Shown: positions 1 to 35,024, counted from the first letter of the stretch. The stretch is 64,000 bases of DNA from an uncultured Gammaproteobacteria bacterium (GCA_964453605.1 CAYVOI010000001.1:102276-166275); one strand, 5' to 3'. Translations and numbers: made by a program. The notes: generated by a model from the letters alone, not told the origin.

Positions 1-14
1 CGGCTAGCCTCGCC

Positions 15-1379
15 GTGCAGGTACTAGTGCAGCGCTATGACACAGCATATTCGGCAGCTCAGGTTAAACGGGCCGGTATTGAGGAGGCGAGTTTTATTGA
101 TCAGCAGCGTCTCCCCAGCGACGCCAGGGCGATAGCCCGTACGGTGCTCGCGTTCTACGACTACGTAGTCTACAGCGGAACGGTGATGCTATCGGAGCAG
201 GAGCGGCAGCTGGTAGTGGCGAAGACGACAGAGGTTGATGAGGGCGCAGAGCTAGGGGAACCTACCGCCTCGGCCAGTCAGCCCCCTCCTCCGCTGCCGC
301 CCACGGTTCAATTGTCTCCGCCCCCAGCCACACCCAGGGCCGTAGTACCTACACCAAGCGCAGTTCGGCCACAGCCGCGTACCGTCAGCTCGGCTAGCGG
401 CACACCACTGCCACCAGGTGTACCCGACGTACTTAAGATGGGCGAACCAGCTTTTTTCTTTGACCTTAGTGATGAGCGCGAGGCTGACCAGTTCCGCCAG
501 GCTAGCCCCCCGTGGGGGACCGCAGGTAACCTTGAGCAGCAGCTCAGGGCGTTGGCTGACCAGGTTATCACGGCCAATAAGTTCAGCTTCAAGGAAGAGG
601 TTTCGAAGCGGCGGTTCGTGAACCTATTTGTGTCGCGCCTCAAAGACGTGCGCAGCGTGGTGGATGCCCGTGAGCTACTCTTGAAGCCGGTAGCCTCGGG
701 CGGGTTAGGACTAGCGCCTGACAAAGCTGAGCAGGTGATTACAATCATCGAGCGTGCCAAGCAAGAGTTGGCAGCCCACCCCCTGCCCGCCACCCCGTTG
801 GCTAGCCTGCCGGTGGTGGTCCCGCCAGCTCCCGCTGCGCTGCCGGCTGGCCCAGTCATGCCAAGGTCAGAGGTGCCTGGTAGCCCGTCGGGTGCTGTGT
901 CACCCGCGACGTTGTCAGACTGGCGTACTGAGATGCTGGAGGAAATAGCGCGGTTAGCTCCTGAGGTGCCGCCAGCTACGGCCGGTAAACGTGAGTTGCC
1001 GCCCAGGCCCCAGGCCGAGCGCCCCCAGGTTATGGACGTCAAAGCTCCACCCCGAACTCTCGGACCCCTGGAGGAGCTTAAGACCTTAAGCCTCACCGAT
1101 TTTCGCCGACTCGACCCCTCGCCCGTGGAAGCGCTGGCGCACATACGCGCCAAAATAGATTTGATTGGTGAGGCCTCGGTTACCAGGCGCCTGCAAGCTA
1201 TCCGCGCCTGGCAGGCGGCGCCGCTGTACCAGCTCTACCTTATGGTCGGGCGTGAGTGCATCGAGCAGGGGAAGGTGGTAGCCCAGGTGGCGGCTGACCG
1301 TGAGGCGCGCGGCGAGCCAACGCTGAGCGAGGCTGAGTTCGATGCCATTGTCGATTTCAACACTAAGCTACGCTTCTAG
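15..1379 (+). CDS. proline-rich hypothetical protein, probably 5'-partial; first gene of the T4SS-like block
   Basis: The frame is open to the window edge and starts with GTG. There are long Pro/Ala-rich linkers (PPPPLPPTVQLSPPPATP) and a C-terminal globular segment. No recognisable catalytic motif. Confidence 0.45.
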   Translation: MQVLVQRYDTAYSAAQVKRAGIEEASFIDQQRLPSDARAIARTVLAFYDYVVYSGTVMLSEQERQLVVAKTTEVDEGAELGEPTASASQPPPPLPPTVQLSPPPATPRAVVPTPSAVRPQPRTVSSASGTPLPPGVPDVLKMGEPAFFFDLSDEREADQFRQASPPWGTAGNLEQQLRALADQVITANKFSFKEEVSKRRFVNLFVSRLKDVRSVVDARELLLKPVASGGLGLAPDKAEQVITIIERAKQELAAHPLPATPLASLPVVVPPAPAALPAGPVMPRSEVPGSPSGAVSPATLSDWRTEMLEEIARLAPEVPPATAGKRELPPRPQAERPQVMDVKAPPRTLGPLEELKTLSLTDFRRLDPSPVEALAHIRAKIDLIGEASVTRRLQAIRAWQAAPLYQLYLMVGRECIEQGKVVAQVAADREARGEPTLSEAEFDAIVDFNTKLRF

Positions 1380-1382
1380 TGT

Positions 1383-1826
1383 ATGGAGCAGTTCGTGGTA
1401 CCACAGTTTATAGATGTAGAGGATAAAATCATCGGACCTCTAACGGTGCGGCAGTTTATCATTATTATGGTGGTAGGCTTCTTCGTCTTCCTCGAGTTTC
1501 GGCTGGCCACGCTGGGTTTCTTTATTGTGGAAGCTGTGCTGAGCCTAGCAATTGGTGGGCTGTTCGCTTTTGGTAAGTTCAACGGCATGCCGTTCCACTA
1601 CTTTTTAGTGAACCTAGTGCAAACGCTCCGACGCCCTAAGCTGAGGGTGTGGCAACGCACTATTAGTACCTCGGACGTTGAGGAAGCGGTGCACCCGCCG
1701 GCTGAACTCGTGCGCGCCACGCCGCCGGCGCCAGCTAAGCCACTGCTCCAGGAGTCACGACTGCAGCAGCTGACGCTACAAGTTGATACCGGTGGTTCCT
1801 ACCACCCCGAAGAAGAGCCTAAGTAA
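1383..1826 (+). CDS. PrgI/VirB3-like small membrane protein of type IV secretion systems
   Basis: 147 aa, directly upstream of VirB4. N-terminal segment PQFIDVEDKIIGPLTVRQF is followed by a two-helix hydrophobic hairpin (IIIMVVGFFVFLEF...FFIVEAVLSLAIGGLFAF). This is typical of PrgI/VirB3-family proteins. Confidence 0.5.
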   Translation: MEQFVVPQFIDVEDKIIGPLTVRQFIIIMVVGFFVFLEFRLATLGFFIVEAVLSLAIGGLFAFGKFNGMPFHYFLVNLVQTLRRPKLRVWQRTISTSDVEEAVHPPAELVRATPPAPAKPLLQESRLQQLTLQVDTGGSYHPEEEPK

Positions 1827-1902
1827 ATTACCCCACTACCAAACGCCCGTAGTAACGCTGCGGCGTGGTATACTTACCCGGTAGCCTCCTCACCTCGTTC
1901 TC

Positions 1903-2595
1903 ATGGCAAAAAAAGGTAAAGCCAAACCCAAGAAACCAAAGGCCGGTCCGCCCACCAGCTCGTACCTCGAGATTGCTGAAATTCACGATAACTGCGTGGT
2001 CATGAAAGACGGCACGCTCAGGGCCCTGTTCTTGTGCTCGTCGGTGAACTTTGCCCTGAAGAGCGAGGACGAGCAGAACGCCACCATTCAGGCCTACGTG
2101 AGCTTTTTGAACTCACTCGATGCCCCGCTCCAAATTGTGGTGCAATCGCGCAAGCTTAACATCGACGGCTACCTCAGTAAGCTCGAAGCTATGGAGAAGA
2201 GCCAGGTGAACGAGCTCCTGCGAGTGCAAACCTCGGAGTACCTGGCCTACATTCGTGAGCTCATTAGCTTAGGCGACATCATGACCAAGCGGTTCTACGT
2301 CGTCGTGACCTACGACCACCGGTCAGACAAGCGCCGTAGCTTCTGGCGCCGCTTGCTCTCTGTTTTCACGGCGGCAGCCAGCATCAAACTGTCGCGCGAC
2401 GAGTTTGCCCGCTACGCCGAGGCGCTGGAGCGCCGCGCCGGCTACATCGTGTCTGGCCTGACCTCCATGGGCCTCAAAGTTGCCAGGCTCGACACCCAAG
2501 GCCTGATAGAGCTCTACTACACTACCTACAACCCCGAGCTTAGGGAGCGCCAGAAGCTGGTTGAGCTCGACAAGCTCCAGGTAGGTGCCAGCTAA
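1903..2595 (+). CDS. VirB4/TrbE N-terminal domain, encoded as a separate ORF (split gene or frameshift)
   Basis: The motif VVMKDGTLRALFLCSSVNFALKSEDEQ matches the conserved start of VirB4-family ATPases (vl.kDGsl.a.f.l.G.dfe..sdee). The ORF stops at TAA 2593-2595, overlapping the next ORF's start at 2585 in the +1 frame. Confidence 0.55.
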   Translation: MAKKGKAKPKKPKAGPPTSSYLEIAEIHDNCVVMKDGTLRALFLCSSVNFALKSEDEQNATIQAYVSFLNSLDAPLQIVVQSRKLNIDGYLSKLEAMEKSQVNELLRVQTSEYLAYIRELISLGDIMTKRFYVVVTYDHRSDKRRSFWRRLLSVFTAAASIKLSRDEFARYAEALERRAGYIVSGLTSMGLKVARLDTQGLIELYYTTYNPELRERQKLVELDKLQVGAS

Positions 2596-4483
2596 GCGTA
2601 CCGTACGTATGGCCATTACTGCCCGACAAGCTAGCGCTGAGCTGCAGCGTCCGGTGAGCACCCTGCCCCAGCCGGAAGAGCTTCCGCCCGCCAGCGAAAA
2701 AGAACTGCTGGAGGCCGAGCGCCTGCTCCGCGAAGGTTCGGTCAGGGTTCGTGATATCATCGCCCCCGCCAGCTTAAAGGTTACCCCCGATCACCTTGAG
2801 CTCAATGGGCTCTGGCTCCGGACGCTCTTCGTTATGACCTACCCCCGTTACATTTCGGTGGGCTGGTTTGCGCCCATTATCAACCTCAACGCCACCTTAG
2901 ACGTCAGTATGTTCTTCTACATGGTACCGTCGGAGATAATTTTGAAGCAGCTCAGGAACCGGGTGGGTGGCATTGAGGCGCAAATTGTAGCCGACCACGA
3001 AAAGGGTGCCCCCCGTGACCCTATTCGCGAAACCGCGCTTCGTGACATCGAGCAGCTCAGGGATTCGCTCACCCAGGGCACCGAGCGCTTTTTCCAGGTG
3101 GCCCTCTACGTCACGCTCTACGCTAAGGACAAGACCGAGCTCGACAAGCTGACGGAGGAGGTGGAGTCTATCTTCGGCTCCAAGCTGGTGTACTCCCGCC
3201 GGGCGCTCTGGCAAACTGAACAAGGGTTCAACTCCACGCTACCGCAAGCCACCGACGACCTGCAGATCTACTTCAACATGAACACCAGCCCGGCGGCTTC
3301 GAGCTTCCCCTTTATTTCCTCCGAGCTCACCTCGGACAGCGGCATTCTCTACGGCATCAACCGGCACAACAACTCACTCATTCTGTTTGACCGTTTTAGC
3401 TTGCAGAACGCCAACATGAGCGTGTTCGCCACGAGTGGCGCCGGTAAGAGCTACGCTGTGAAGCTCGAGGTGCTCAGGAGCCTCATGATGGGGACCGACG
3501 TTATCATCATCGACCCTGAAATGGAGTACAAGCACCTCAGTGAGGCGGTCGGAGGTGCTTACGTTAACATCTCGTTGAATTCAGAGTCTAAGATAAATCC
3601 GTTTGACCTGCCGCGACCAGTGGGTGACGTGAACACTGGTGACATTATCCGCTCGGCTGTGATAACCCTGAAAGGCCTGATGCGCTTAATGCTCGGGAGC
3701 TTAACCCACGTAGAGGATTCGCTTATCGACCGGGCACTCCTTGAAACCTACGCCAAGAAAGACATTACCCCGGCATCGGACCTCTCTAAAGTTGAAGCGC
3801 CGGTGATGGCCGACTTCCAGGAAGTGTTAGGTGGTATGCAGGGCGGTGAAGATTTGGCGCTCCGTTTGAAAAAGTACACCGAGGGTACGTTCGCTGGCCT
3901 CTTCAACAGCCCTACGAATGTTGACGTCAAAAACCAGTTGGTGGTGTTCTCAGTCAGGGACTTGGAAGATGAGCTCAGGCCCATCGCTATCTACACCATT
4001 GTGAACTACATTTGGAACGTGGTGCGGAGTGAGCTCAAGAAACGCTTACTCGTTATTGATGAGGCGTGGTGGCTGATGCAGAACGAGGACAGCGCTAAGT
4101 TCATTTTCGCGCTCGTGAAGCGCTGCCGTAAGTACTACCTCGGGGTGACCACCATTACGCAAGACGTTAACGACTTCTTAACCAGCCCTTATGGCCAGGC
4201 TATTGTGAACAACTCGGCGTTGCAGCTCTTGCTCAAGCAGTCACCCGCTGGCATAGACCTGGTGGTAAAAACGTTCCTCCTCACCGAGGGCGAAAAGTAC
4301 TTGCTCCTCGAGTGCGGCGTAGGTGAGGGCATTTTCTTTGCCGGCTCCAAGCACGCGGCTATTAAGGTGGTGGCCTCCTACACCGAGGACCAGCTCATAA
4401 CGAGCGACCCCCGGCAGCTCCTCGAAATTGAACAGGCCAAGAAAGAGTTTGAGGCCAGCCTCAAAGAACCGGACATTGGTTAA
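2585..4483 (+). CDS. virB4: VirB4/TrbE/CagE-family type IV secretion ATPase (core and C-terminal part)
   Basis: Walker A FATSGAGKSYAVK and Walker B LLVIDEAWWLM, where DEAW is the VirB4 hallmark. Also IIIDPEMEY and TITQDVNDF. With the upstream fragment the total is about 860 aa, typical for VirB4. Confidence 0.85.
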   Translation: MPAKRTVRMAITARQASAELQRPVSTLPQPEELPPASEKELLEAERLLREGSVRVRDIIAPASLKVTPDHLELNGLWLRTLFVMTYPRYISVGWFAPIINLNATLDVSMFFYMVPSEIILKQLRNRVGGIEAQIVADHEKGAPRDPIRETALRDIEQLRDSLTQGTERFFQVALYVTLYAKDKTELDKLTEEVESIFGSKLVYSRRALWQTEQGFNSTLPQATDDLQIYFNMNTSPAASSFPFISSELTSDSGILYGINRHNNSLILFDRFSLQNANMSVFATSGAGKSYAVKLEVLRSLMMGTDVIIIDPEMEYKHLSEAVGGAYVNISLNSESKINPFDLPRPVGDVNTGDIIRSAVITLKGLMRLMLGSLTHVEDSLIDRALLETYAKKDITPASDLSKVEAPVMADFQEVLGGMQGGEDLALRLKKYTEGTFAGLFNSPTNVDVKNQLVVFSVRDLEDELRPIAIYTIVNYIWNVVRSELKKRLLVIDEAWWLMQNEDSAKFIFALVKRCRKYYLGVTTITQDVNDFLTSPYGQAIVNNSALQLLLKQSPAGIDLVVKTFLLTEGEKYLLLECGVGEGIFFAGSKHAAIKVVASYTEDQLITSDPRQLLEIEQAKKEFEASLKEPDIG

Positions 4484-4503
4484 CGTAATTTCCCCCGTAC
4501 CCT

Positions 4504-5064
4504 ATGTGGCGAAAGATAGTGCCCCTAGCCGTTGGTGTACTCGTGGTGGCCGCGGCCGCCTGGTACTGGTTTGTGTACCTGGCGCCTGCTCCGGTGCAGC
4601 CTACAAATCCAGGCACAGCCAGCCAGGCCGTGAACCAACCAGGCCCTACACCTAGTACTAACCAGCCAGCCCAGGTTCAACCCGAACCGGTTGATCCAAC
4701 CTTAGGGTGGCGTGTGCTAGCTCAGAACTTTGCTGAGCGCTACGGCAGCTACTCTACCGATCTGCCGTTCCAGAACCTTAAGACCTTGAGCTCGCTGGTC
4801 ACACCCGCCTTTCAAGAACGTCTCAGCGCTCAGGTGGCAGGCGGTTCCACGGGCCCAGGGTTTTACAGCGTAACTACGCGAGCACTCATGGCAGAGAACC
4901 AAGCAGGTGGTACTGAGGGTATGACGGTAAACGTTTCCACCCAGCGCAGCGAACGCTTTAGCCGTGACGGTGCACCGCAGGTTTCGTACGCTGTGCTCCA
5001 GGTAGAGCTCAAACAGGTCAGCGGTACCTGGTTGGTAGATTCAGCTGCTTGGCAGAAGAAGTAA
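4504..5064 (+). CDS. bitopic membrane protein with Pro/Gln-rich linker and small C-terminal beta-rich domain (possibly VirB8-like, NTF2-like)
   Basis: N-terminal TM helix IVPLAVGVLVVAAAAWYWFVYL. The C-terminal domain is about 110 aa and ends YAVLQVELKQVSGTWLVDSAAW. Its position after VirB4 fits a VirB8 analogue. The assignment is by architecture only. Confidence 0.35.
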   Translation: MWRKIVPLAVGVLVVAAAAWYWFVYLAPAPVQPTNPGTASQAVNQPGPTPSTNQPAQVQPEPVDPTLGWRVLAQNFAERYGSYSTDLPFQNLKTLSSLVTPAFQERLSAQVAGGSTGPGFYSVTTRALMAENQAGGTEGMTVNVSTQRSERFSRDGAPQVSYAVLQVELKQVSGTWLVDSAAWQKK

Positions 5065-5082
5065 CTATTTTTCTTAGGTTAT

Positions 5083-5112
5083 ATTCTAATATTCCTAGGA
5101 ACATTGGAGTAA
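5083..5112. promoter_or_regulatory. operator-like repeat copy 1 containing the perfect palindrome TTCCTAGGAA, overlapping the promoter of the ArsR-like gene
   Basis: ATTCTAATATTCCTAGGAACATTGGAGTAA. A TATACT -10 hexamer follows about 3 bp downstream (about 5115-5120) and the gene ATG is at 5128. Confidence 0.45.
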
Positions 5113-5127
5113 TGGTATACTGTATTT

Positions 5128-5397
5128 ATGCAGAGCTACCGAAGTCTTGAGCGTCTGGTGAGAGGGTTCGCCAGTCATCGTCGAATTGAGATTATGGTGC
5201 TGCTGGGACGTGGGCTGGCGCTTACGGTGTTCGATGTGGCCGATAGGCTACGTATCAATTTTCGTACTGCCTCGGAACACCTGCGCCGTTTGTACACCGC
5301 CGGATTAGTCGGCAAGCGTAATCGTGGCGCGGCGGTAGAACATACGCTCACCGAGCAGGGGAGAGTTATTCTAAAGTTCCTAAGAACATTGGAATAA
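5128..5397 (+). CDS. ArsR/SmtB-type winged-helix transcriptional regulator
   Basis: 89 aa. HRRIEIMVLLGRGLALTVFDVADRLRINFRTASEHLRRLYTAGLV matches the ArsR HTH pattern (H..R..IL..L...E..V.EL.......S.HL..L...G.V). Confidence 0.6.
   Translation: MQSYRSLERLVRGFASHRRIEIMVLLGRGLALTVFDVADRLRINFRTASEHLRRLYTAGLVGKRNRGAAVEHTLTEQGRVILKFLRTLE
5368..5397. promoter_or_regulatory. operator-like repeat copy 2 (26/30 identical to copy 1) at the 3' end of the regulator gene, 16 bp upstream of the next ORF
   Basis: ATTCTAAAGTTCCTAAGAACATTGGAATAA. It encodes the regulator C-terminus and its stop codon, and immediately precedes the ATG at 5413. Confidence 0.45.
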
Positions 5398-5412
5398 GGT
5401 TTTTGAGATTGT

Positions 5413-5940
5413 ATGGCTGAGCAGGTACAAGCAGACACAACTGAAGACCTGGTTGAGCAAGCGCCGGCAGAGAGCGTTGAGCAACGTAATGAGCGTGAGC
5501 TCACGGAAACCCGCGCTAAGGCCAGCGTATTAGAGCGCGCACTTAAACTTGAGACAACGGGCGTCGACTCGCTCGACCAAGCAGCTAATAAAACTTCGCA
5601 GCAGTGGCTTGATGACACCAAGCTGGCGCTGCTGCCGCTGTTCTACCTCTACCTGCCGCTCTTGGCCATTTTTGTGATAGTCGTGATTGAGCTCATGCTA
5701 CCACTGTGGCGCAGCTCGTGGACTCTCCCTCTCTGGCGCAAGGTGGTGTACTGGGTCTACATTGTACTGTTTGTATTCCTGACCATAACAATCCTCGGGG
5801 CCCTGGCCTACCTCTACAAGCACCCCGACAAGTTTTGCACCTTGGTGTTGGACGGTACGTGGTGGGGGGCCGTGCCTGGGGTTAAGCAGGCCGGGTGCAG
5901 TGTTTTTGGTTGGTTGTTCAATTTGTTCAAGCCCGGCTAG
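5413..5940 (+). CDS. membrane protein: acidic N-terminal region plus three or four TM helices
   Basis: Acidic or coiled N-terminus, then LALLPLFYLYLPLLAIFVIVVIELMLPLW and VVYWVYIVLFVFLTITILGALAYLY. No known motif. Confidence 0.45.
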   Translation: MAEQVQADTTEDLVEQAPAESVEQRNERELTETRAKASVLERALKLETTGVDSLDQAANKTSQQWLDDTKLALLPLFYLYLPLLAIFVIVVIELMLPLWRSSWTLPLWRKVVYWVYIVLFVFLTITILGALAYLYKHPDKFCTLVLDGTWWGAVPGVKQAGCSVFGWLFNLFKPG

Positions 5941-5972
5941 GAATTTTTGAGCTGAGCGGGTATGATTAAGCT

Positions 5973-7262
5973 ATGAGGCAACGTTTGAGCGCAGCTGTGG
6001 TCGGTAGCATAGCCCTGGGGCTGTTCTCGGCAGCACTCTTAGCACCAGCGCCGGCTGGCGCCGTTTCATGCCAGTGTTTTGAGGCAGCAGCAGATACCCA
6101 GAGTAACGTTGCGGTACCTATTAATGGTGGTAACCCCTACTGTGCCCAGGTTACCTCGATTACTGATTGTAGTCCGAAACATTTCGGTTTGCAGTCACAG
6201 CGGATTGAATCCACTAGCGATTTTGGCTTTGGTACTACCTATACGACCTCCTGTCTTAGCTACCGCGATAATGCCTGCAAAATACTGGTGGGGAGCGTCG
6301 CTGACCCCCGTTCAATATTCAACCCCTGTTGGACCAAAGACCAGTGCCAGGCTGCGGATGGTGATTTTGATGACAGTGGCAAAGACTCTCCGAGCTGTGA
6401 ACCGTTTGCGGGTCAGCCAACGGCCCGGTGCTTTGTGAAACCACCACTCATTAAACTGCAAATCCCTATCCCTGGGCTGGGGGACACGGTTCAGGGCGGG
6501 TTCCCTGAGTACCTAGCCGCGTTCTATAAGTTTTTTGTGGCTCTTCTCGCCGTAGCTTCTGTAGTCATGGTGATGTGGGGTGGGTTCAAGCGCATTATGG
6601 CCGTAGGCAGCCCGGAAAAAATAAAAGACGCCAACGACGCCATAGCCGGTGCTATCACCGGTTTGGTTCTCGTGCTCATTTCTTACTCACTGCTGGCGCT
6701 CCTTAACCCACGGCTGGTTACCTCTACCAGGCTTACCTTGGACAAGGTAAAAACGCAACTGTTCGGTAACTGGTGCCCCGCTACTGACCCGACAAACAAA
6801 AACATACAGTACCAGTGTGGCGATAAGGCTACCATAGAGGGTCAAGCCTGTGTGGGGAGCGCGTGTCCCATAAGCGGTACGGGCTGCTACAAGGTGAGTG
6901 ATTCCGGGGGAGTTGATAGTACGGGCCGCTTTACTGACTACCAGTGCTTAACGCCAGAAGACGCTTGCAATAGCGTACTACGAGGTACGGCGCTGAGAAT
7001 TCATGGTGCCAAAGATAACTATAGCGGCTACCAGGCGGTTTGCAGCAGCTTTAACCGCTCTATCGCAGGTCAGCAGTATTTGTGTCTATGGCAAGGTGGG
7101 GCGGAAAAATGCCAGTGGTATACACCTGCCAATATCGCGCAGGTGTGTGCTGATCATTCAGGTTGCTCGGCATTCAGTGCCGGTGGTAATTTGAAGGGTT
7201 TTTGTACATTTGATTTGTGTAATCGGGGCTGTAAGATTGATGGAGCTGCTTGTAAACCCTAG
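5973..7262 (+). CDS. secreted cysteine-rich protein with a central VirB2/TrbC-like hydrophobic hairpin module (paralog 1)
   Basis: Signal peptide MRQRLSAAVVGSIALGLFSAALLAPAPAGA. About 30 Cys residues flank a 65-aa module YKFFVALLAVASVVMVMWGGFKRIMAVGSPEKIKDANDAIAGAITGLVLVLISYSLLALLNPRL. This module is shared with the ORF at 9247. Confidence 0.55.
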   Translation: MRQRLSAAVVGSIALGLFSAALLAPAPAGAVSCQCFEAAADTQSNVAVPINGGNPYCAQVTSITDCSPKHFGLQSQRIESTSDFGFGTTYTTSCLSYRDNACKILVGSVADPRSIFNPCWTKDQCQAADGDFDDSGKDSPSCEPFAGQPTARCFVKPPLIKLQIPIPGLGDTVQGGFPEYLAAFYKFFVALLAVASVVMVMWGGFKRIMAVGSPEKIKDANDAIAGAITGLVLVLISYSLLALLNPRLVTSTRLTLDKVKTQLFGNWCPATDPTNKNIQYQCGDKATIEGQACVGSACPISGTGCYKVSDSGGVDSTGRFTDYQCLTPEDACNSVLRGTALRIHGAKDNYSGYQAVCSSFNRSIAGQQYLCLWQGGAEKCQWYTPANIAQVCADHSGCSAFSAGGNLKGFCTFDLCNRGCKIDGAACKP

Positions 7263-7265
7263 TCT

Positions 7266-8516
7266 ATGTTCGCAAACCTTGATCGCAAGAAAGTCTTGTT
7301 GGTAGCTGGCGTAGCGCTGGCGGTAGCAGTTCTGGTTTGGCTGGTGCTTAGGCTCTTAGCTAAACCACAACCCCCGCAGCCGCCCGTGAACCAGAACCTC
7401 AACCGCCCGGTGAACTTTCCGGTTGGTGTGAACGGCAACCTGAACGTTAGCCCAATCGGTGGCACCAACTTGCCGCTCGCTAACGGTAATGTGAATGTAC
7501 CTGGTGGACCTGGCGGTAGCCCGGTAGCTAGCGGCGGGCCTACGGCTACGGCGGCTATTACCTCCGGCCCGGCGCTGGCCCCCACCGCTGGCGCGGCTGG
7601 CTCCGTACGCTACTACAACCCCACCGATGGTAAGTTCTACGAACTTCTGGGCGGTACCGCGCATACCTTGAGCGACGCTTCGTACCCTGAGGCACAAAAC
7701 ATTACCTGGTCGCCACAGAAGAGCAGTGCTATTCTAGAGTTTCCCGATGGCGCTAAGGTGCTGTACGATTTTGACAAACACAAGCAGTTCACCTTACCCA
7801 AAGAAATGACCGAGTTTTCCTTTGCACCCGACGGACAGAAAATCGCTGGTAAGTACCTGGGTACCAACCCAGCTAACAACTGGATAACAACGGTGAACCC
7901 CGACGGCTCCGGCCTTACCGGGGTTGAGCCGATGGGAGAGAACGCCGACAAGGTGGAGGTAGCTTGGTCGCCCAATAACCAGGTGGTTGCCCTGTCGCGC
8001 ACCGGCGACCCGGCGGGCTTGTTCCAGCAGAACGTGCTCCTCATAGGGTTCCACGGCGAGAACTTTCGGCAGCTGACGGTCGACGGGCGTGGCTTTGACG
8101 CCCGCTGGACGCCCGATGGTAATCGGCTGCTGTACTCGGTTTACAGCGACACCACCAACTACCAGCCCACTCTCTACCTGGCCGATGCCAGTGCCGACCG
8201 CGTGGGGGCCAACAAGCAGGCGCTCCAGCTTAATACCTGGGTGGATAAGTGCACAGTTGAGGGCGGTGTGGCGTACTGTGCTGTGCCAACACAGCTGCCC
8301 CAGGGTGCCGCGTTCAGCCGCGAGCTAGCAGCCGGCACGCCCGATTACATTTACCGCATAGACCTGGCCACTGGCGGTACTACCTTGGTGGCTCAGCCGC
8401 TGGGGCAAAACGGTGCTGGGCTCACCGCCAGTAACCTGACCGTGGCTGGCGATGGCAGTATGCTCTACTTTACCGATAGCCAGGGAACCTTGCGGAGCGT
8501 GAAGCTAAAGCCGTAG
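7266..8516 (+). CDS. membrane-anchored TolB-like beta-propeller (PD40/WD40-like repeats) protein
   Basis: N-terminal TM anchor and a Pro/Asn-rich linker. Repeated units of the form W(S/T)PDG...(L/I)...: ITWSPQKSSAILEF, FSFAPDGQKIAGKY, VAWSPNNQVVALSR, ARWTPDGNRLLYSV. Confidence 0.55.
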   Translation: MFANLDRKKVLLVAGVALAVAVLVWLVLRLLAKPQPPQPPVNQNLNRPVNFPVGVNGNLNVSPIGGTNLPLANGNVNVPGGPGGSPVASGGPTATAAITSGPALAPTAGAAGSVRYYNPTDGKFYELLGGTAHTLSDASYPEAQNITWSPQKSSAILEFPDGAKVLYDFDKHKQFTLPKEMTEFSFAPDGQKIAGKYLGTNPANNWITTVNPDGSGLTGVEPMGENADKVEVAWSPNNQVVALSRTGDPAGLFQQNVLLIGFHGENFRQLTVDGRGFDARWTPDGNRLLYSVYSDTTNYQPTLYLADASADRVGANKQALQLNTWVDKCTVEGGVAYCAVPTQLPQGAAFSRELAAGTPDYIYRIDLATGGTTLVAQPLGQNGAGLTASNLTVAGDGSMLYFTDSQGTLRSVKLKP

Positions 8517-8579
8517 GTGGGCTGAAGCACTACCCGGTCTGTGTTCAGGCTCGGGCTGGTTTAGTGATATGATAGAGCT

Positions 8580-9227
8580 ATGGTGACTACCAGCTCTATG
8601 CTCCGCGTAATGCTGCTCGGTGTTGCGGTGGTGCTAGTGGTGGCGGTGTGGCAGCTCCGCCGAGAGAGTGCTCGCCTGAGCTACCAGCCAGCGCCGAGCG
8701 AGCAGGCTCAGCCCACCAAGCTGCCATCGCAAGTTACCGTTCTGCCGGCTGACCCGGTGCGGGGGGCGGCCACTGCACCACAAACGGTAGTGCTGTTTAG
8801 CGATTTCCAGTGTCCCTACTGTGCTGAGGTGGCACCCATCCTGGCTCAGGCCGTGGCCCAGAACGGTGGCAGGTGGAAGCTGGTGTGGAAAGACTTTCCT
8901 CTGCCCTCACACCCCGAGGCTCTGGCGGCGGCGGAGGCGGCCCAGTGCGCTGGTAGCCAAGGTCGGTTTTGGGAATACCACGACCAGCTGTTCCAGCGGC
9001 AAGCTACGCTCGGGCCCCAGCTCTACCAAGCTCTGGCGCTTGAGTTGAACCTCAGCCCCGAGCCATTCCAGCGCTGTCTGGCGCAGCACACCTTTAAGCC
9101 GTTCATTGAACACAGCCTGGCTGAGGGCGCAGCTATTGGCGTTGATGCCACTCCTTTTTTGGTGGTAGGTAGCAAGGTCTACCGTGGTACGTTTACGGCC
9201 GAGGAGCTAGCCCAGTTTTTGGAGTAA
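8580..9227 (+). CDS. DsbA-family thiol:disulfide oxidoreductase (thioredoxin fold, CPYC active site), membrane-anchored
   Basis: TM anchor MLLGVAVVLVVAVW. Active-site block VVLFSDFQCPYCAEVAP. C-terminal ATPFLVVGSKVYRGTFTAEELAQFL, typical of DsbA/DsbG-like proteins. Confidence 0.7.
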   Translation: MVTTSSMLRVMLLGVAVVLVVAVWQLRRESARLSYQPAPSEQAQPTKLPSQVTVLPADPVRGAATAPQTVVLFSDFQCPYCAEVAPILAQAVAQNGGRWKLVWKDFPLPSHPEALAAAEAAQCAGSQGRFWEYHDQLFQRQATLGPQLYQALALELNLSPEPFQRCLAQHTFKPFIEHSLAEGAAIGVDATPFLVVGSKVYRGTFTAEELAQFLE

Positions 9228-9246
9228 GCAGGGAGTTTATTGACCT

Positions 9247-10431
9247 ATGCAGGCTAACGTAAAGTTACTGGTTGCTCGCAGCGTCCTCTGTGTAGCCGCA
9301 CTGGGGTGGAGCGTGGCACCGTTGCTCCCGGTGTGGGCGGCTGTGCCCTGTTCACCTAAAGACGTGTGGCAGGTAAACGATTGTACGGGGATTACGTGCT
9401 GTGATGTCGGCTACGTTTGCCGAGCGCAGGATTATAAAAACGGCCGGGAGGGGACATTGTCGCAGCATATCTGTGAAGTGGCCCCACCAGCGGAACAAGA
9501 AGGTAGCAGCTCGGCCACTACCCCCCTGGAGTTCCAGCCCCAGGTAACCATCCCCGGTACCATTACCGTGGGGGGGCAGCAGGTTTCGTTCCGGCAAGGG
9601 CAGGGACTTGCCGTGACGGGTGATACCATTGCGCAGTACCTCGGGGTGTTCTATAAGTTTTTCATAGCCATGCTGGCCGTGGCCGCAGTTGTTATGGTGA
9701 TGTGGGGCGGGTTCAAGCGCATTATGGCGGTAGGTTCCCCGGAGAAGATTGCTGACGCTAACGATGCTATTGTCAGTGCCCTTACTGGTTTAGTGCTGGT
9801 GCTTATTTCCTATTCGCTCCTCAACCTCATTAACCCTAAGCTGACGAGCTTTAAAACCTTAGCCCTGACACCGGTGACGAGGATAGAGTTTGAAGATGTA
9901 GAGGCAGAGCAGATTGTAGCAGCGGCCACCCAGCCTAGCAGCGTGCCGCAGGTGGCTATTATCAGCGGCGCTAACATCAGCAACCCGGGTAACAAAATAG
10001 CCACCCTCCCGCTCATTACTGCCCTACAAGCTGCCGCGGCTGAGTTAGCTAAGCAGAACGTGTATGTGATTGTGACCTCTGGTACCAGAACAGTCGCCGA
10101 GCAAACCGCGCTCATCTTGAAGAACTGTATAAATCCACCAGGGTCTACTAGCTGCCATCCTAAACCCGGCGGGGTGGAGACGTGTCCACTGCCGGGGAAC
10201 AACCCCTTAAGCTGTCCCCACACCTCGGGCCAAGCGGTGGACGTGTGGGCGGCGCAGGGCAACAGCACGCCGATTTCGCAAAAGGCCTGCCAGGCTAATA
10301 AGCCCGCCTGCGAGCAAGACCCGGCCATGGCCGCACTCATTGCGGCTATGCGAGCACAGGGGTTTTGTAAGCTCGACAGCGAACCCTGGCACTTTGAACA
10401 GCCAGTGGTGTCGGCTGGCCGTTGTCACTAA
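9247..10431 (+). CDS. secreted cysteine-rich VirB2/TrbC-like hairpin protein fused to a C-terminal LAS/peptidase M15 (VanY-like zinc D,D- or L,D-peptidase) domain (paralog 2)
   Basis: Signal peptide. Module YKFFIAMLAVAAVVMVMWGGFKRIMAVGSPEKIADANDAIVSALTGLVLVLISYSLLNLINPKL. All three M15 signature blocks are present: SGTRTVAEQ (SGxRxxxxQ), HTSGQAVD (HxxxxxxD zinc ligands) and EPWHFE (EPWHF). Confidence 0.6.
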   Translation: MQANVKLLVARSVLCVAALGWSVAPLLPVWAAVPCSPKDVWQVNDCTGITCCDVGYVCRAQDYKNGREGTLSQHICEVAPPAEQEGSSSATTPLEFQPQVTIPGTITVGGQQVSFRQGQGLAVTGDTIAQYLGVFYKFFIAMLAVAAVVMVMWGGFKRIMAVGSPEKIADANDAIVSALTGLVLVLISYSLLNLINPKLTSFKTLALTPVTRIEFEDVEAEQIVAAATQPSSVPQVAIISGANISNPGNKIATLPLITALQAAAAELAKQNVYVIVTSGTRTVAEQTALILKNCINPPGSTSCHPKPGGVETCPLPGNNPLSCPHTSGQAVDVWAAQGNSTPISQKACQANKPACEQDPAMAALIAAMRAQGFCKLDSEPWHFEQPVVSAGRCH

Positions 10432-11786
10432 CTCCTATGTCACCACGTCTCAGCGCCGTGTACACCTGTTCGAACTGCGACGCCCAGTACCCCAAGTGGG
10501 TGGGGCGCTGTAGCCAGTGCGGCAAGTTTGGCACCGTGGCCACCGACCCCCAGGTAGTGGCGCGAGCTGCACCGCAAGCTGCAGGTTCTGCGCCAGCGGC
10601 CACCGTGTCACTCGGTAATTTGACGAATACGTACCACGGTAAACGTCAGGGTACGGGTTATGCCGAGGTGGACCGTGTGTTGGGCGGCGGGTTCGTGCCC
10701 GGCAGCGTAACACTTCTCAGTGGTGAGCCAGGGGTAGGCAAGTCCACACTCCTGCTTGCACTCGCCGAACGGTTACAAGCCCCCGTGCTTTACGCTTCAG
10801 GTGAGGAATCGGCCGAGCAGGTATCAGGCAGGCTTAAACGCTTGGGACTTGCCGGTTCTAAGCTCTCGTTTACTACCGAAACCAATGTGGGGAGCCTGAG
10901 CGCCACTGTCCGCCAGCTTAAACCAGCTCTACTGGTGATGGACTCGCTCCAAGCCGCGAGCTTGCCAGAGGAAACAGGGACCTCGGGTTCCCCTGCCCTG
11001 GTACGCGCTGCCCTGAGCGAACTGGTAACGTTGGCCAAAGGTACTAACGTGCCGGTGGTAGTGGTGGGGCACGTGACCAAGGCCGGGGTGGCAGCTGGGC
11101 CCAAGGCCATAGAGCACCTAGTCGATGTGGTACTGACCTTAGAGGGCGCGGAGCACCAGCCCTTACGGTTCCTGCGTGCCAGCAAGAACCGTTTTGGCGC
11201 TACTGACGAGGTGGGTGTGTTTGAAATGGGAGAGCAGGGGCTGGTAGAGGTTCAAAACCCCTCGGCACTATTCTTAAGTGAACGGCACCAGGGTGCAGGC
11301 TCTTGCATAACCGCGCTGCTTGAAGGTTCGCGGAGCTTGCTCTGCGAGGTGCAAGCGCTGGTTACACACTCACGTCAGAGCTACCCCAAGCGTGCCACCA
11401 CCGGGTTCGACGCTAACCGGCTGGAAGTGTTACTGGCTGTGCTCGGGGAGCGGGCGGGCGTGAAGCTGAACTATAGTGACGTGTATATAAACCTAGCCGG
11501 CGGTTTCCGCTCACGTGAGCCAGCGTTGGACCTGGCAGTTTGTATAGCGGTGGCTTCAGCTGCTACCAAGCGCCCGCTCCCTAAAGATTTAGTGGTGTTT
11601 GGTGAGGTTGGTTTAGGTGGCGAAGTGCGGCCGGTGGTGGGGGCCGAGCGCCGTCTGCAAGAGGCAGCGCGGTTAGGGTTTGTGCAGGCCCTGGTGCCGC
11701 AGGGGCTTAATGTTGAGCGACTACCCTCTGACCTAGCGCTCGTGCCGGTGAAAACCGTGAGTGAAGCCGTGGAGTGGATACGCTAG
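10422..11786 (+). CDS. radA: DNA repair protein RadA/Sms
   Basis: Zinc finger CSNCDAQYPKWVGRCSQCGKFG. Walker A GEPGVGKST. KNRFG motif. C-terminal Lon-protease-like domain. TTG start, with an alternative ATG at about 10437. Confidence 0.9.
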   Translation: MSLTPMSPRLSAVYTCSNCDAQYPKWVGRCSQCGKFGTVATDPQVVARAAPQAAGSAPAATVSLGNLTNTYHGKRQGTGYAEVDRVLGGGFVPGSVTLLSGEPGVGKSTLLLALAERLQAPVLYASGEESAEQVSGRLKRLGLAGSKLSFTTETNVGSLSATVRQLKPALLVMDSLQAASLPEETGTSGSPALVRAALSELVTLAKGTNVPVVVVGHVTKAGVAAGPKAIEHLVDVVLTLEGAEHQPLRFLRASKNRFGATDEVGVFEMGEQGLVEVQNPSALFLSERHQGAGSCITALLEGSRSLLCEVQALVTHSRQSYPKRATTGFDANRLEVLLAVLGERAGVKLNYSDVYINLAGGFRSREPALDLAVCIAVASAATKRPLPKDLVVFGEVGLGGEVRPVVGAERRLQEAARLGFVQALVPQGLNVERLPSDLALVPVKTVSEAVEWIR

Positions 11787-11789
11787 CGC

Positions 11790-12341
11790 ATGCGGTTACC
11801 TCGTAGTTTTTTTGCGCGCCCCACGCTCCGTGTAGCTCGTAGTTTGCTCGGGTGTGTGCTGTCGGTACGGCAGGGTGGCAGACTGCGGCGCGCTGTTATT
11901 GTGGAAACCGAGGCCTACGTTGGGCCAGGTGACCTAGCCTCGCACGCTTCGCGCGGACGCACCAAGCGTACTGAGGTTATGTTTGGCCGTCCGGGGTGCC
12001 TCTACGTCTACCTCATCTATGGTATGTACCACTGCGTGAACGTGGTTACCGAGCGGGTAGGTTACCCGGCCGCTGTGCTCATTCGGGCGGTTATACCGCT
12101 GCCGCGTCGAACGCAACCCAAGGTAGTGGCAGGCCCTGGTCGAGTCTGCCGGTACTTTGGTATTGATCGCCGTTTCAATACCGAGGACACAGCGACTAGC
12201 CGACGTGGTTGGTTCAGCCGCGGTCTGCGCCTACCGCCAGGCCAGGTGACGGCTCGAACACGAGTAGGGGTTGACTACGCCGGGCCGTGGCAGCACAAGC
12301 TGTGGCGGTTTGCACTCACGCCCGATGGTGTACGTAGGTAG
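11790..12341 (+). CDS. mpg: DNA-3-methyladenine glycosylase (Mpg/AAG family)
   Basis: IVETEAYVGPGDLASHASRGRTKRTEVMFGRPGCLYVYLIYGMYHCVNVV matches the AAG family core (ETEAY...D.ASH...G.T.R...MFG..G..YVY..YG...C.NVV). Confidence 0.8.
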   Translation: MRLPRSFFARPTLRVARSLLGCVLSVRQGGRLRRAVIVETEAYVGPGDLASHASRGRTKRTEVMFGRPGCLYVYLIYGMYHCVNVVTERVGYPAAVLIRAVIPLPRRTQPKVVAGPGRVCRYFGIDRRFNTEDTATSRRGWFSRGLRLPPGQVTARTRVGVDYAGPWQHKLWRFALTPDGVRR

Positions 12342-13093: not shown

Positions 13094-15199
13094 TTACTCA
13101 GGGTGAAAGGCGAGCTTAGCTATGCGGTTTTTAAGTTCTGGCCAGGGTTTTAGAGTTGAGTCCTGTTTGAGCACCAGATCAGTAGCCTGCTGGACTGTCT
13201 TCAGTAACCCCTGGTCAGCCAGTGAGGCAAAACGTAGGCTGCTCCAGCCAGACTGTAGTTCTCCCACAATATCACCCGGGCCCCGCTGTTTCAGGTCAAA
13301 TTCCGCTAGGTCAAAGCCACTATGGTGCCTTACCAAGGCATCAAGGCGTGCCAAGCTCTTCGGGTCGGTGGATTCGGTGAGGAGTAGGCAGTAGCTCTGC
13401 AGGTTTGACCTGCCCACGCGACCACGGAACTGGTGCAGCTGCGCCAGGCCAAAACGCTCGGCGCTCTCAATGGCTATAACCGTGGCTTGGGGAACATCTA
13501 CTCCAACCTCGATAACAGACGTGGTGACAAGTATGGGCGTATGTCCATCGACAAACTGTTTCATAGCGCTAGCTTTGGCGCGGGCAGGTAGTTTGCCGTG
13601 CAGCAGCCCTAAGGTAAGTTCAGGGAACACCTCGCGGCTTAGGCGTTCGTGCTCAAGTGTCACCGCGCGGACGCCTAAAACATCGGACTCCTCAATAGTT
13701 GGGCAGACAATGAACACGCGGTGGCCGCGTGCAACCTCTTGCCGCATGAAGTCGTACGCCCTAGTGCGCTCATTTGGTTGTACCATTCGGGTGGTAATGA
13801 GTTTCCGACCAGCCGGTAGGTGGTTTATGGTTGAAAGTTTGAGGTTACCATAGAGGGTAAGCGCCAGGGAACGGGGAATAGGAGTAGCCGAGAGGGAAAG
13901 GAAGTGGGGAATAGCGCGTTGGTCGCGGTGTAGCAGCTGGCGCTGCTCTACCCCAAAACGGTGCTGTTCGTCTACCACAATCAGCCCAAGCTGCTTGAAG
14001 CGGACCGACGCCTGCAGGACAGCGTGGGTGCCGATGAGTATATCAACTTGTCCTTGCTTGAGTTTGATTTTTAGTGACTTATCAGATACCACTACGCCCT
14101 GGTTCGCCACACACTGTTTGGAAGCCGTGAGGAGCCCTAAGGTAACGTGGGGCAGATTAGTAAACAGCCGGCTAAGGGTAGCAGCGTGCTGGTCAGCCAG
14201 AATCTCGGTGGGGGCAATAAGTACAACCTGCCAGCCAGCCGCTGCGGCGTTCAAGGCGGCTAACCCCGCCACAATAGTTTTGCCTGACCCTACATCGCCT
14301 TGGAGCAGCCGGTACATGGGCTCGGAGTTCCCTAGGTCTTTGATAATTTCCCAAGCCGCCACTCTCTGATCGTCAGTTAGCCGCCAGGGTAATGTATCCA
14401 CGAACTGTTTTAGGCCTGACCAGAGTAGAATGGCAGGTGCCTTAGTGCCTGCCGCAGGCAGGTGAGCCAGTTTTAGTTTCAGGCTCATCAGGAACAGCTC
14501 GTCAAAGCCTAGGCGGCGGCGAGCTGGAGCAATGTCGGGCCAACCTTTGGGTTGGTGCAGGTGCTCAAGGGCTGTGGGGAGGCTGGGGAGTTTTGTTTGT
14601 TGCAGGACTTCAGCTGGCAGGTAGTCGGTGACCTGCTCACAGAGCGGCAGGAGTCGGGAGATAGTGCTGCGCAGCTTGGTTTGGGTGAGCTGGGCAGTGG
14701 AGGGGTAAATAGGTACCAAGCGGCCGGTGTGCACACCACCGCGGGCGACCGGCTCCCAGGTCGGGTGTTCGAGTTGCAGCCCGTAGCTTGAGTCAGTGAG
14801 ATGGCCACTGAGGTACACTTCATCGCCCACTCGGAGGCTGTCTTTGAGGTAGGGCTGGTTAAACCACACGGCTTTGATAGTGCCCGTGCCATCGGTAAAA
14901 AGCACCTCGGTTACCTGAAGTTTGCGCCGAAAGCTCCGGCGTGAACTTACGAGCTGTACCTTGGCTCGGAGTGTGACCTGTTCACCTACCTTAAGGTTTT
15001 TGATGGCTACGGTTTTTGAGAAATCGTCGTACCGTGTGGGTACGTGGTGTAGCAGGTCTGCTATCGTGGCAAGCCCCAGGCGCTTGAGGCGCGCCGCGGT
15101 AGAAGGGCCAATACCGGGTACGTGGGTTACGGGACTCTGTGGGGAGAGCATAGTAATTGGTACTTCACCATTATGCCGCGCCTGGTAGCAAAAAACCAC
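13094..15199 (-). CDS. recG: ATP-dependent DNA helicase RecG
   Basis: Wedge/OB N-terminus. Helicase motif I LLQGDVGSGKT, motif II VVDEQHRFGV, and GTHAV. Confidence 0.9.
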   Translation of the reverse strand: MVFCYQARHNGEVPITMLSPQSPVTHVPGIGPSTAARLKRLGLATIADLLHHVPTRYDDFSKTVAIKNLKVGEQVTLRAKVQLVSSRRSFRRKLQVTEVLFTDGTGTIKAVWFNQPYLKDSLRVGDEVYLSGHLTDSSYGLQLEHPTWEPVARGGVHTGRLVPIYPSTAQLTQTKLRSTISRLLPLCEQVTDYLPAEVLQQTKLPSLPTALEHLHQPKGWPDIAPARRRLGFDELFLMSLKLKLAHLPAAGTKAPAILLWSGLKQFVDTLPWRLTDDQRVAAWEIIKDLGNSEPMYRLLQGDVGSGKTIVAGLAALNAAAAGWQVVLIAPTEILADQHAATLSRLFTNLPHVTLGLLTASKQCVANQGVVVSDKSLKIKLKQGQVDILIGTHAVLQASVRFKQLGLIVVDEQHRFGVEQRQLLHRDQRAIPHFLSLSATPIPRSLALTLYGNLKLSTINHLPAGRKLITTRMVQPNERTRAYDFMRQEVARGHRVFIVCPTIEESDVLGVRAVTLEHERLSREVFPELTLGLLHGKLPARAKASAMKQFVDGHTPILVTTSVIEVGVDVPQATVIAIESAERFGLAQLHQFRGRVGRSNLQSYCLLLTESTDPKSLARLDALVRHHSGFDLAEFDLKQRGPGDIVGELQSGWSSLRFASLADQGLLKTVQQATDLVLKQDSTLKPWPELKNRIAKLAFHPE

Positions 15200-15284
15200 C
15201 CCGTCCCGATAGGGGGTCAGGGGTTCTGGTGTAGTATTAATTAGTCCGAACGCATTTCGCCGTCGCAGGCGGCAAAGAGTTTCC

Positions 15285-15322
15285 CCCGCGAAAATTCGGA
15301 AAGGCGGCGGACCGCGCCGCTA
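15285..15322 (-). terminator. GC-rich hairpin plus T-run downstream of the low-GC islet gene (minus strand)
   Basis: Stem GCGGCG...CGCCGC, followed on the minus strand by TTTCCGAATTTT. Confidence 0.35.
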
Positions 15323-15363
15323 ACAATTTCAAGTTTTTCTTTGGTGGCATTAAATTATGAAAT

Positions 15364-16077: not shown

Positions 16078-16125
16078 AATATGATTAAAAAATTTTCTGG
16101 CCCCAACTCTTTGAGTTTTCCTTTC

Positions 16126-16200
16126 TGGTGCCCTCGGTAGGAATCGAACCTACATTACAAGCTCCGCAAGCTCGCGTTCTATCCATTGAACTACGAGGGC
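16126..16200 (-). tRNA. tRNA-Arg (anticodon GCG)
   Basis: Reverse complement GCCCTCG-TA-GTTC-AATGGATA-GAAC-G-CGAGC-TTGCGGA-GCTTG-TAAT-GTAGG-TTCGATT-CCTAC-CGAGGGC-A-CCA. It is a clean cloverleaf with the CCA encoded. Anticodon loop TTGCGGA. Confidence 0.8.
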
Positions 16201-16256
16201 CTAAGGTATGAAACAGAGCTAAACCAGTATAGGGTAGCTTTTAGCCTGTGGCAAGG

Positions 16257-34722: not shown

Positions 34723-34731
34723 AAAAAGCAA

Positions 34732-34755
34732 CGCACCGCGGTAAATTGCGGTGCG
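34732..34755. terminator. bidirectional terminator hairpin
   Basis: CGCACCGC-ggtaaatt-GCGGTGCG. Confidence 0.55.
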
Positions 34756-34784
34756 AGCGAGAAACTTGTTGTAGGGCGTCGCCT

Positions 34785-34967
34785 TTATTTGTGGAACGCG
34801 AGCTCTTCGTGTGGATCAAGCTCAATTAGCTCGTTGGGCTCGGGAATCTGTTTGGGTGTAGAGCGGACTTTGTGCATTGCGGCTATGACCACGCTGCCCA
34901 GTGCAGCGAACACAAATACAGTGACGATCTTTTTCATCATGTTGTCCTTTTGTGTTTTGTGATACAC
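34785..34967 (-). CDS. small membrane protein (60 aa), hypothetical
   Basis: One TM helix IVTVFVFAALGSVVIAAM. Weak support. Confidence 0.3.
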   Translation of the reverse strand: MYHKTQKDNMMKKIVTVFVFAALGSVVIAAMHKVRSTPKQIPEPNELIELDPHEELAFHK

Positions 34968-35024
34968 GGTTAATTAGCGAACAGAACATGATAGCACGTT
35001 GAGGTAAAATGTCAAGTCCTTAGG

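Follow-up and report, generated by a model that had tools for sequence, protein, structure and literature searches.

A probable Patescibacteria type IV secretion system with long pilin-hairpin proteins, encoded on a chromosomal stretch labelled as Gammaproteobacteria

Layout of the locus

The stretch of DNA analysed here, called the window throughout, comprises 64,000 nucleotides (nt) of a contig deposited under the name of an uncultured Gammaproteobacteria bacterium (GCA_964453605.1, CAYVOI010000001.1:102276-166275). Its first 12 kb carry a block of genes that is quite likely the chromosomal, vertically inherited type IV secretion system (T4SS) of a bacterium of the Patescibacteria (candidate phyla radiation, CPR), a judgement that takes in the mechanism proposed below for its pilin-hairpin proteins, DsbA, M15 peptidase and ArsR regulator. 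The genes follow each other on the + strand in a continuous run (1-12341) with intergenic gaps of 3-81 nt, and an identical contig has a public gene call that agrees on these genes and puts the VirB4 start at ATG 2609 (624 amino acids, aa). An earlier interpretation made from the DNA alone (the sequence-only reading) had described a co-directional, tightly spaced block at 1383-10431. All genes that it named are found there on the + strand, while its limits were drawn too narrowly: a conserved open reading frame (ORF) precedes the block (1-1379) and radA follows it (10437). Families were assigned with Pfam and NCBIfam profiles, and bit scores were compared with the curated cut-offs. The features of the run are the following.

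1..1379, +, 3' part (454 codons) of a conserved cytoplasmic protein, truncated by the window start
1383..1826, +, PrgI/VirB3-like small membrane protein with two transmembrane (TM) helices (PF12666)
1903..2595, +, TrsD-like protein, 230 aa (NF041427)
2585..4483, +, VirB4 ATPase, 632-aa ORF (NF045971, P-loop_TraG)
4504..5064, +, bitopic VirB8-like protein, 186 aa (predicted from fold and gene position)
5082..5112, no strand, 31-nt palindrome copy 1, putative operator (repeat scan, 0 expected by chance)
5128..5397, +, ArsR/SmtB-family winged-helix regulator, 89 aa (HTH_5)
5367..5397, no strand, 31-nt palindrome copy 2, 87% identical to copy 1
5413..5940, +, 175-aa membrane protein with two TM segments and two Cys in the tail (no supported family)
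5973..7262, +, pilin-hairpin protein A, 429 aa (PF18895 T4SS_pilin)
7266..8516, +, membrane-anchored PD40 beta-propeller protein (PD40)
8580..9227, +, membrane-anchored DsbA-like thiol-disulfide oxidoreductase (Thioredoxin_4, DSBA, CPYC)
9247..10431, +, pilin-hairpin protein B, 394 aa (PF18895; C-terminal M15/VanY-type motifs)
10437..11786, +, radA (public gene call and Pfam)
11790..12341, +, 3-methyladenine glycosylase (Pur_DNA_glyco)

When genomes were scanned with VirB4, 80 loci were retrieved whose VirB4 is 73-88% identical; they come from assemblies of uncultured organisms, nearly all of them metagenome-assembled genomes. These loci are the relatives referred to below, and L001 is the closest of them.

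The core machine

The PrgI/VirB3-like protein scored 37.1 bits against PF12666 (cut-off 27), in agreement with its first description, and its TM segments were placed at aa 15-33 and 34-52. VirB4 was recognized by NF045971 (CD1110 family; 351 bits, cut-off 325), P-loop_TraG (98.9 bits, 3.4e-28) and VirB4_plasma (1.4e-77), its translation contains intact Walker A (GAGKS) and Walker B (LLVIDE) motifs, and by profile score its best-matching models are the monoderm (FATA) VirB4 families. The preceding ORF matched TrsD (NF041427, 1.3e-6) and aligns to N-terminal regions of VirB4 models (VirB4_plasma 102-236, CD1110 19-126), while the 632-aa VirB4 ORF spans positions 183-730 of the 752 positions of the CD1110 model, the two ORFs representing successive parts of one full-length model. 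The earlier description of a VirB4 in two pieces is therefore right in that two ORFs cover one model and wrong if taken to mean a split gene: because each of the 79 relatives with both genes encodes TrsD and VirB4 as separate ORFs, never fused (in L001 they are 53 nt apart), the arrangement is a native TrsD followed by a native VirB4, and a frameshifted or broken VirB4 is ruled out. Among the T4SS components of Patescibacteria, TrsD is reported to be the most abundant (PMC12102498).

The 186-aa protein encoded after VirB4 has an N-terminal TM helix, a proline-rich linker and an NTF2-like domain, and is bitopic with this domain on the extracytoplasmic side, like the solved VirB8 proteins; the VirB8-type names listed are IcmL-like, TraM, Rickettsia VirB8-like, TraE, TrwG and TcpC (3ub1). 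No sequence match was obtained in Pfam, NCBIfam or PDB, VirB8 and PrgL profiles included, and the protein is predicted to belong to the VirB8 family on the grounds of fold and gene position, the fold confirming the bitopic VirB8-like candidate put forward before.

At 1-1379 the reading frame stays open as far as base 3. Homologues of this ORF lie directly before PrgI, were found by tblastn in 74 of the 80 relatives, and share a proline-rich middle and a conserved C-terminal domain of 120 aa; the copy of L001 (6003-8225) is 740 aa long. The window protein has no TM segment and no match in Pfam, NCBIfam or PDB, and we regard it as a putative core component of the locus. The region upstream of the window start was read in the relatives, 36 of which encode there a protein of 820-1570 aa; in L001, the only member checked, it has about eight TM segments at its N-terminus, and its tail is long and charged. 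Since two of 16 members match TrbL/VirB6 below threshold (best E 0.0036), this polytopic protein is considered a VirB6-like candidate; its profile found no sequence match in the PDB. The sequence-only reading had seen no VirD4, VirB6 or VirB11 in the window and had pointed upstream, which is borne out on both counts: profile scans detected no VirD4, VirB11 or relaxase across the whole 64 kb, and the VirB6-like candidate is present upstream in relatives. No Pfam or NCBIfam match was found for the 740-aa, 1002-aa and 552-aa upstream proteins of L001. In that relative the VirB6-like gene is preceded by a Cys-rich protein of about 550 aa without family match (226-1884), homologues of which are present in L002, L003, L005, L007, L009, L030 and L032; it may be a further disulfide-dependent exported component.

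Pilin-hairpin proteins, propeller and DsbA

Proteins A and B scored 30.0 and 28.6 bits against PF18895 (T4SS_pilin; cut-off 26.6), and a match to the Mbov_0395 pilin-like family (1.6e-7) stayed under its cut-off; the VirB3-like and pilin-like ORFs singled out earlier thus both match T4SS profiles above curated cut-offs. Each protein consists of a signal peptide, an N-terminal ectodomain, the hairpin (aa 177-250 in A, 126-202 in B) and a C-terminal ectodomain, the ectodomains of about 95-190 aa flanking the hairpin on both sides. In the AlphaFold2 model of protein A, which is poor overall (predicted local distance difference test score, pLDDT, 59), the hairpin appears as helices 177-209 and 214-244. 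The signal peptide and the two-helix hydrophobic hairpin are those of a pilin, and the size is not that of the small-subunit pilins, which measure roughly 70-120 aa and consist mostly of hairpin. Protein A contains 26 cysteines, ten preceding the hairpin, 16 following it and none within, and mature protein B contains 14, six before and eight after. The cysteine columns are kept in homologues. Each of the block's eight other proteins has 0-4 cysteines. The two had been presented as paralogous Cys-rich secreted proteins with a VirB2-type hairpin. Secretion and hairpin stand, with PF18895 above its cut-off, and the paralogy is limited to a hairpin segment of 95 aa with 67% identity. The conservation of this segment between otherwise unrelated flanks suggests that the hairpin binds a conserved partner.

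The C-terminal part of protein B contains SGTR-278, HTSGQAVD-325 and EPWH-379, which we take to be the motifs of LAS/VanY zinc peptidases, with the zinc ligands in H-x6-D and the distal His in E-x-W-H. Homologues of protein B carry PF02557 and PF01427, and the peptidoglycan peptidase that had been suspected in the block is supported by the M15/VanY zinc motifs of protein B and by PF02557 in these homologues. A PDB sequence search with protein B gave nothing usable.

The hairpin belongs to a large family: an exhaustive search with the 88-aa hairpin yielded 11,071 cluster representatives at E <= 1e-3, and among the best 150 nearly all are 200-930 aa long with an internal hairpin. PF18895 was found in 101 of the 105 closest representatives and TrbC (PF04956) in three. 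Roughly 30 of these 105 carry a peptidoglycan hydrolase domain, with tallies that partly overlap within the same protein: SLT 13, VanY 8, Peptidase_M15 5, Peptidase_C39_2 3, M15_4 2, 3D 2, NlpC/P60 2, CHAP 1 and Amidase_5 1. The hydrolase is located C-terminal to the hairpin in all four proteins checked (three representatives and the window protein). The family also includes polyproteins with six to eight tandem T4SS_pilin hairpins per chain (P0098, P0083, P0084 and P0106), of which P0098 (820 aa) has eight PF18895 stretches and also matches TrbC.

The genes for the propeller and DsbA are placed between those of the two hairpin proteins. The propeller protein has an N-terminal TM segment and scored 33 bits against PD40 (cut-off 20.9), and a PDB sequence search with it gave nothing usable. 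It had been called TolB-like; the PD40 propeller holds and the identity with TolB was rejected, the TolB equivalog TIGR02800 scoring 18.2 bits against a cut-off of 343 and a Tol-Pal context being absent. The DsbA has an N-terminal TM segment, a CPYC motif at aa 78 and matches to Thioredoxin_4 (88.4 bits, 7.8e-25) and DSBA (53.4 bits, 3.7e-14). It is a DsbA as claimed, and "dedicated" to this locus overstates the case. Thioredoxin-fold oxidoreductases that serve machines with disulfide-containing exported subunits include TrbB of F-type T4SSs and BdbD of Bacillus competence. The match of the window protein to TrbB is weak (9.7e-5, 22 bits against a cut-off of 132), the protein being of the Thioredoxin_4/DsbA type, with CPYC and membrane-anchored in a monoderm. 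A VKOR-family protein encoded elsewhere in the window (61129-61743, +; PF07884, 3e-43) is probably the membrane re-oxidant of this DsbA; a 193-aa ORF without NCBIfam match (61710-62291) overlaps the VKOR gene.

The ArsR regulator and its palindromes

The ArsR-type regulator with duplicated putative operators, as it had been described, is present: the 89-aa protein scored 29.1 bits against HTH_5 (cut-off 22) and 40 bits against NF033788 (2.6e-10), the latter under its cut-off of 55, and the two 31-nt palindromes are real, a pair of which 0 are expected by chance and of which the 64 kb hold no third copy. The regulator contains no cysteine and is not a metalloid sensor of the classical type. Copy 1 (5082-5112) is the imperfect palindrome TATTCTAATATTCCTAGGAACATTGGAGTAA of 31 nt, 16 nt upstream of arsR. 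Copy 2 (5367-5397) overlaps the final arsR codons, 16 nt upstream of the next gene, and then comes GGTTTTTG; the 31-nt palindrome at both sites is given as TATTCTAAnnTTCCTAnGAACATTGGAnTAA. As RNA, copy 2 folds at -11.6 kcal/mol (z -2.5), so that it may act as an attenuator or terminator.

No tblastn match to ArsR was obtained in the 80 relatives, and the 175-aa protein has a homologue in L001 alone among them, so the pair represents a lineage-specific addition. The 175-aa protein was considered as a third pilin and rejected (T4SS_pilin E 0.045, missed by the hairpin hidden Markov model, HMM).

Conservation in related genomes

The check on gene order suggested with the sequence-only reading finds VirB4 surrounded by the same T4SS genes in 80 genomes of related Patescibacteria. 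None of the outcomes that would have refuted that reading was obtained, and its interpretation is supported. The core order, from the protein upstream of PrgI through PrgI, TrsD and VirB4 to the VirB8-like protein, recurs in nearly all loci: the upstream protein was found in window order in 74 of the 80, PrgI in 77, TrsD in 79 and the VirB8-like protein in 73. Downstream on the same strand, radA is present in 49 loci, and in 31 it directly follows the VirB8-like gene. In all of the 49 loci VirB4 is more conserved than RadA (median identity 77% vs 44%), from which a strong constraint on VirB4 is implied at the sequence level. Such a constraint fits the essentiality of the T4SS shown by transposon sequencing (Tn-seq) in a saccharibacterium (PMC10633639).

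The hairpin HMM detected one or two genes, encoding 275-693 aa, in 24 relatives, and in all 24 these genes (within 10 kb of virB4) follow the VirB8-like gene in the same orientation. The propeller is present in 24 of the 80 relatives, 21 of them with a pilin-hairpin gene, and DsbA occurs in the T4SS locus of 24, six of these loci having no pilin. Hairpin, propeller and DsbA were found together in 17 loci and none of the three in 47, of which 12 are uninformative as their contigs are too short. Judged by this distribution, the three form a co-occurring module.

Small extra genes were observed at two places in L001. A 23S-rRNA-intervening-sequence protein (8252-8596) is encoded between the upstream gene and PrgI, and a PaaX/Cas2-like protein and an AbiEii toxin domain (14947-16523) between pilin protein A and the propeller; they resemble selfish genes inside the T4SS operon.

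Identity of the host and comparison with known systems

Informative names among the 80 loci are Kerfeld-, Falkow-, Veblen- and Komeilibacteria and the Parcubacteria group. The first four are placed in the GTDB class ABY1. No close VirB4 relative is titled as anything other than Patescibacteria save under "uncultured Gammaproteobacteria" TPA_asm labels, which look like labelling artefacts. An ultra-small monoderm lineage had been suspected from the DNA, and the relatives are indeed Patescibacteria; together with them, the housekeeping surroundings and a LOOT RNA in the window place the block on the chromosome of a Patescibacterium. We assign the system to the Patescibacteria clade that arose from monoderm conjugation machines of the mating-pair formation class FATA (MPF-FATA), and it shows all tested features of this clade's T4SSs inside the window, VirB6 lying outside. 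The relaxase, the coupling protein and the linked origin of transfer (oriT) or integrase of a conjugative T4SS were not found in the window, its sole recombinase being 44 kb away; strictly speaking, the locus does not encode a conjugative T4SS.

The sequence-only reading had called the layout not a textbook one. This is correct, but the kind of system has been described already, with its TrsD, PrgI and PF18895 pilins, with no relaxase and, in ABY1, with radA and recG nearby (PMC10633639, PMC12102498, PMC12857230). The window locus resembles the Patescibacteria-clade T4SS of Quinonero-Coronel et al. 2025 (PMC12102498) in having TrsD, VirB4 and PrgI/VirB3 with PF18895 genes near virB4, and it shares with the ABY1 layout of that study the chromosomal location, the absence of a relaxase or coupling protein nearby and the adjacent radA and recG. 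VirB8-like proteins were detected there mainly in ABY1.

The T4SS of Southlakia epibionticum ML1 (SEML1_0006-0019; Wang et al. 2023, PMC10633639) has PrgI, a TrsD-like protein and VirB4 in the same order, as well as a large VirB6-like protein, PF18895 pilin genes and wall hydrolases in the cluster, and likewise no relaxase or coupling protein. It differs in its six small pilins of about 104-185 aa, its separate lysozyme-type hydrolases and the lack of a detected structural VirB8 homologue, whereas the window has a protein with the VirB8 fold, two hairpin proteins of 394-429 aa, a fused M15 peptidase, DsbA and the propeller. The T4SS and pilin array of S. epibionticum are essential for its epibiotic growth (PMC10633639). 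With the staphylococcal MPF-FATA systems of the pGO1/pSK41 type (TrsC, TrsD, TrsE) the locus shares separate adjacent genes for VirB3-like protein, TrsD and VirB4, a single-membrane architecture and a VirB8-fold protein; unlike the locus, the staphylococcal systems reside on plasmids, include a relaxase and a coupling protein, lack a VirB2-like pilin and encode a separate VirB1-like hydrolase, TrsG.

Hairpin-hydrolase fusions, DsbA, the propeller and ArsR are not mentioned in the literature searched. The main text of PMC12102498 contains no thioredoxin/DsbA, propeller, ArsR, VanY, hairpin-hydrolase fusions or Cys-rich ectodomains, and two of its supplement files gave no match for the Pfam terms thioredoxin, PD40, VanY and HTH_5. 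Measured against that literature, the pilin-hairpin/propeller/DsbA module, the large Cys-rich hairpin proteins with their hydrolase fusions and the lineage-specific ArsR with its putative operator pair look undescribed. The locus adds no new kind of system; it is a compact and well-conserved ABY1 version whose conserved accessory features, going beyond the literature searched, seem worth the note of specialists.

Proposed function and alternative explanations

For the function of the locus we infer the following mechanism. VirB4 and TrsD would dock on PrgI and the VirB6-like and VirB8-like proteins to form a single-membrane translocon. The hairpin proteins would be inserted into the membrane via Sec, their ectodomains oxidised by DsbA, itself probably re-oxidised by the VKOR protein, and the machine would engage them through the conserved hairpin. 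The M15 domain could take the role of VirB1, cutting stem peptides of peptidoglycan locally in the cell's own wall or in that of the host, and the propeller could be an extracytoplasmic scaffold or binding module. ArsR would bind both palindromes and repress itself and the downstream membrane-protein and pilin genes. Because no relaxase or coupling protein is encoded in the 64 kb, the system probably serves host interaction, with molecules exported or imported where epibiont and host are in contact, and not conjugation. No T4SSs other than those of Patescibacteria are known to be required for growth by the bacteria that encode them, and the present locus makes several ideas testable: VirB2-type hairpins as carriers or anchors of wall-cutting enzymes, which if true would explain the rarity of separate VirB1 homologues near virB4 in Patescibacteria; a need for oxidative folding by a locus-encoded DsbA; and the VirB8-fold protein as a core part in ABY1.

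Several points weigh against this interpretation. The AlphaFold2 model of protein A is poor; both hairpin proteins, with 394-429 aa, are far above the length of a canonical VirB2 pilin, and their polymerisation is a proposal only; and protein B scored below the cut-offs of VanY (15.5 bits vs 25) and Peptidase_M15 (17.9 bits vs 27). The VirB6 candidate lies outside the window, with its sub-threshold TrbL match in two of 16 relatives, the gene for a coupling protein could likewise lie beyond the window, and the palindromes may be RNA hairpins instead of operators. Finally, the 31 relatives with radA directly after the VirB8-like gene have no pilin, propeller or DsbA nearby, so the module is dispensable or encoded elsewhere in those genomes.

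This last observation, along with the six loci that have DsbA and no pilin, could also mean that the hairpin proteins, propeller and DsbA make up a separate module for envelope remodelling in which the hairpin is a mere membrane anchor. The length of the proteins, three to four times that of a VirB2 pilin, and the wall hydrolase domains in about 30 of the 105 family representatives would agree with such a module. We nevertheless hold it to be unlikely: the hairpin scores above the T4SS_pilin cut-off and some family members also match TrbC/VirB2, its genes keep their strand and their place downstream of the VirB8-like gene in all 24 relatives, the hairpin is far more conserved than its flanks, as the identity between A and B shows, and peptidoglycan hydrolases (VirB1) are standard accessories of T4SSs.

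The neighbourhood of radA, which starts 5 nt past the last gene of the module and is retained downstream in the 49 loci mentioned, and that of recG (13094-15199) would suit a system for handling DNA, either by competence-like uptake or by relaxase-independent export, in which radA and recG take part. The presence of comF, recG and radA near ABY1 T4SS loci has been noted before, with the suggestion of coordination (PMC12102498), and VirB4 weakly matches ATPases of the archaeal Ced system for DNA import (CedB 4e-12, CedD 5e-5). However, the CedB score of 45.6 bits compares with a cut-off of 700, and CedD is also far below its cut-off; the block and the window contain no relaxase, coupling protein or ComEC-like channel; and S. 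epibionticum needs its T4SS but can do without comEC-dependent transformation (PMC12857230). A gene order shared by related genomes does not prove a common function, and the link with radA is one of conserved adjacency only. A role in DNA handling is accordingly rated as quite improbable.

Within the T4SS reading, the long hairpin proteins could be true pilus subunits, extracted by VirB4 and polymerised via the hairpin, with disulfide-stabilised ectodomains shown along or at the tip of the filament and with propeller and DsbA as dedicated assembly factors. We regard this as very doubtful. If true, it would amount to an enzyme-decorated pilus of the conjugative type with which an ultra-small epibiont breaches or binds the cell wall of its host, the filament displaying an M15 peptidase here and SLT, NlpC/P60, CHAP, 3D or C39-like domains in relatives.

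A degraded integrative and conjugative element or plasmid remnant, recently acquired by horizontal transfer, might be read from the closeness of VirB4 to models from conjugative elements of Firmicutes and Mollicutes and from the slightly higher GC content of the first 12 kb relative to the rest of the window, but it is essentially excluded by the conservation data, with the same gene order and radA neighbourhood across 80 divergent genomes, VirB4 conserved above RadA and all reading frames intact, and the block has no integrase, relaxase, coupling protein or repeat boundary, the lone recombinase being 44 kb off.

Other features of the window

A consensus scan for promoters and terminators gave nothing beyond shuffled sequence: two promoter-like sites were counted where 4.3 were expected, and 17 terminator-like sites compared with 12.5 +/- 3.6 in shuffles. 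The remainder of the window is of housekeeping character (recG, glyA, folD, uvrABCD, groEL, ppdK, dnaG, rpoD). The first 40 kb are rich in DNA-repair genes: uvrD (+), uvrC (-) and uvrA (+) are grouped at 32635-40706, and radA, recG and the 3-methyladenine glycosylase gene are near the T4SS.

A large serine recombinase (54758-56395, -) adjoins tRNA-Asn (54640-54712), and beyond it two ORFs without family match were found (57172-58524, -; 59744-60433, +); the region 54640-60433 may be a small integrated element. The LOOT RNA (Rfam RF03000), a structured RNA, is located at 59353-59467 (+) and scored 88.2 bits against a gathering score of 46.4. The Translin family is mainly known from eukaryotes and archaea, and a member of it is encoded at 16864-17442 (+; PF01997, 2.2e-22).

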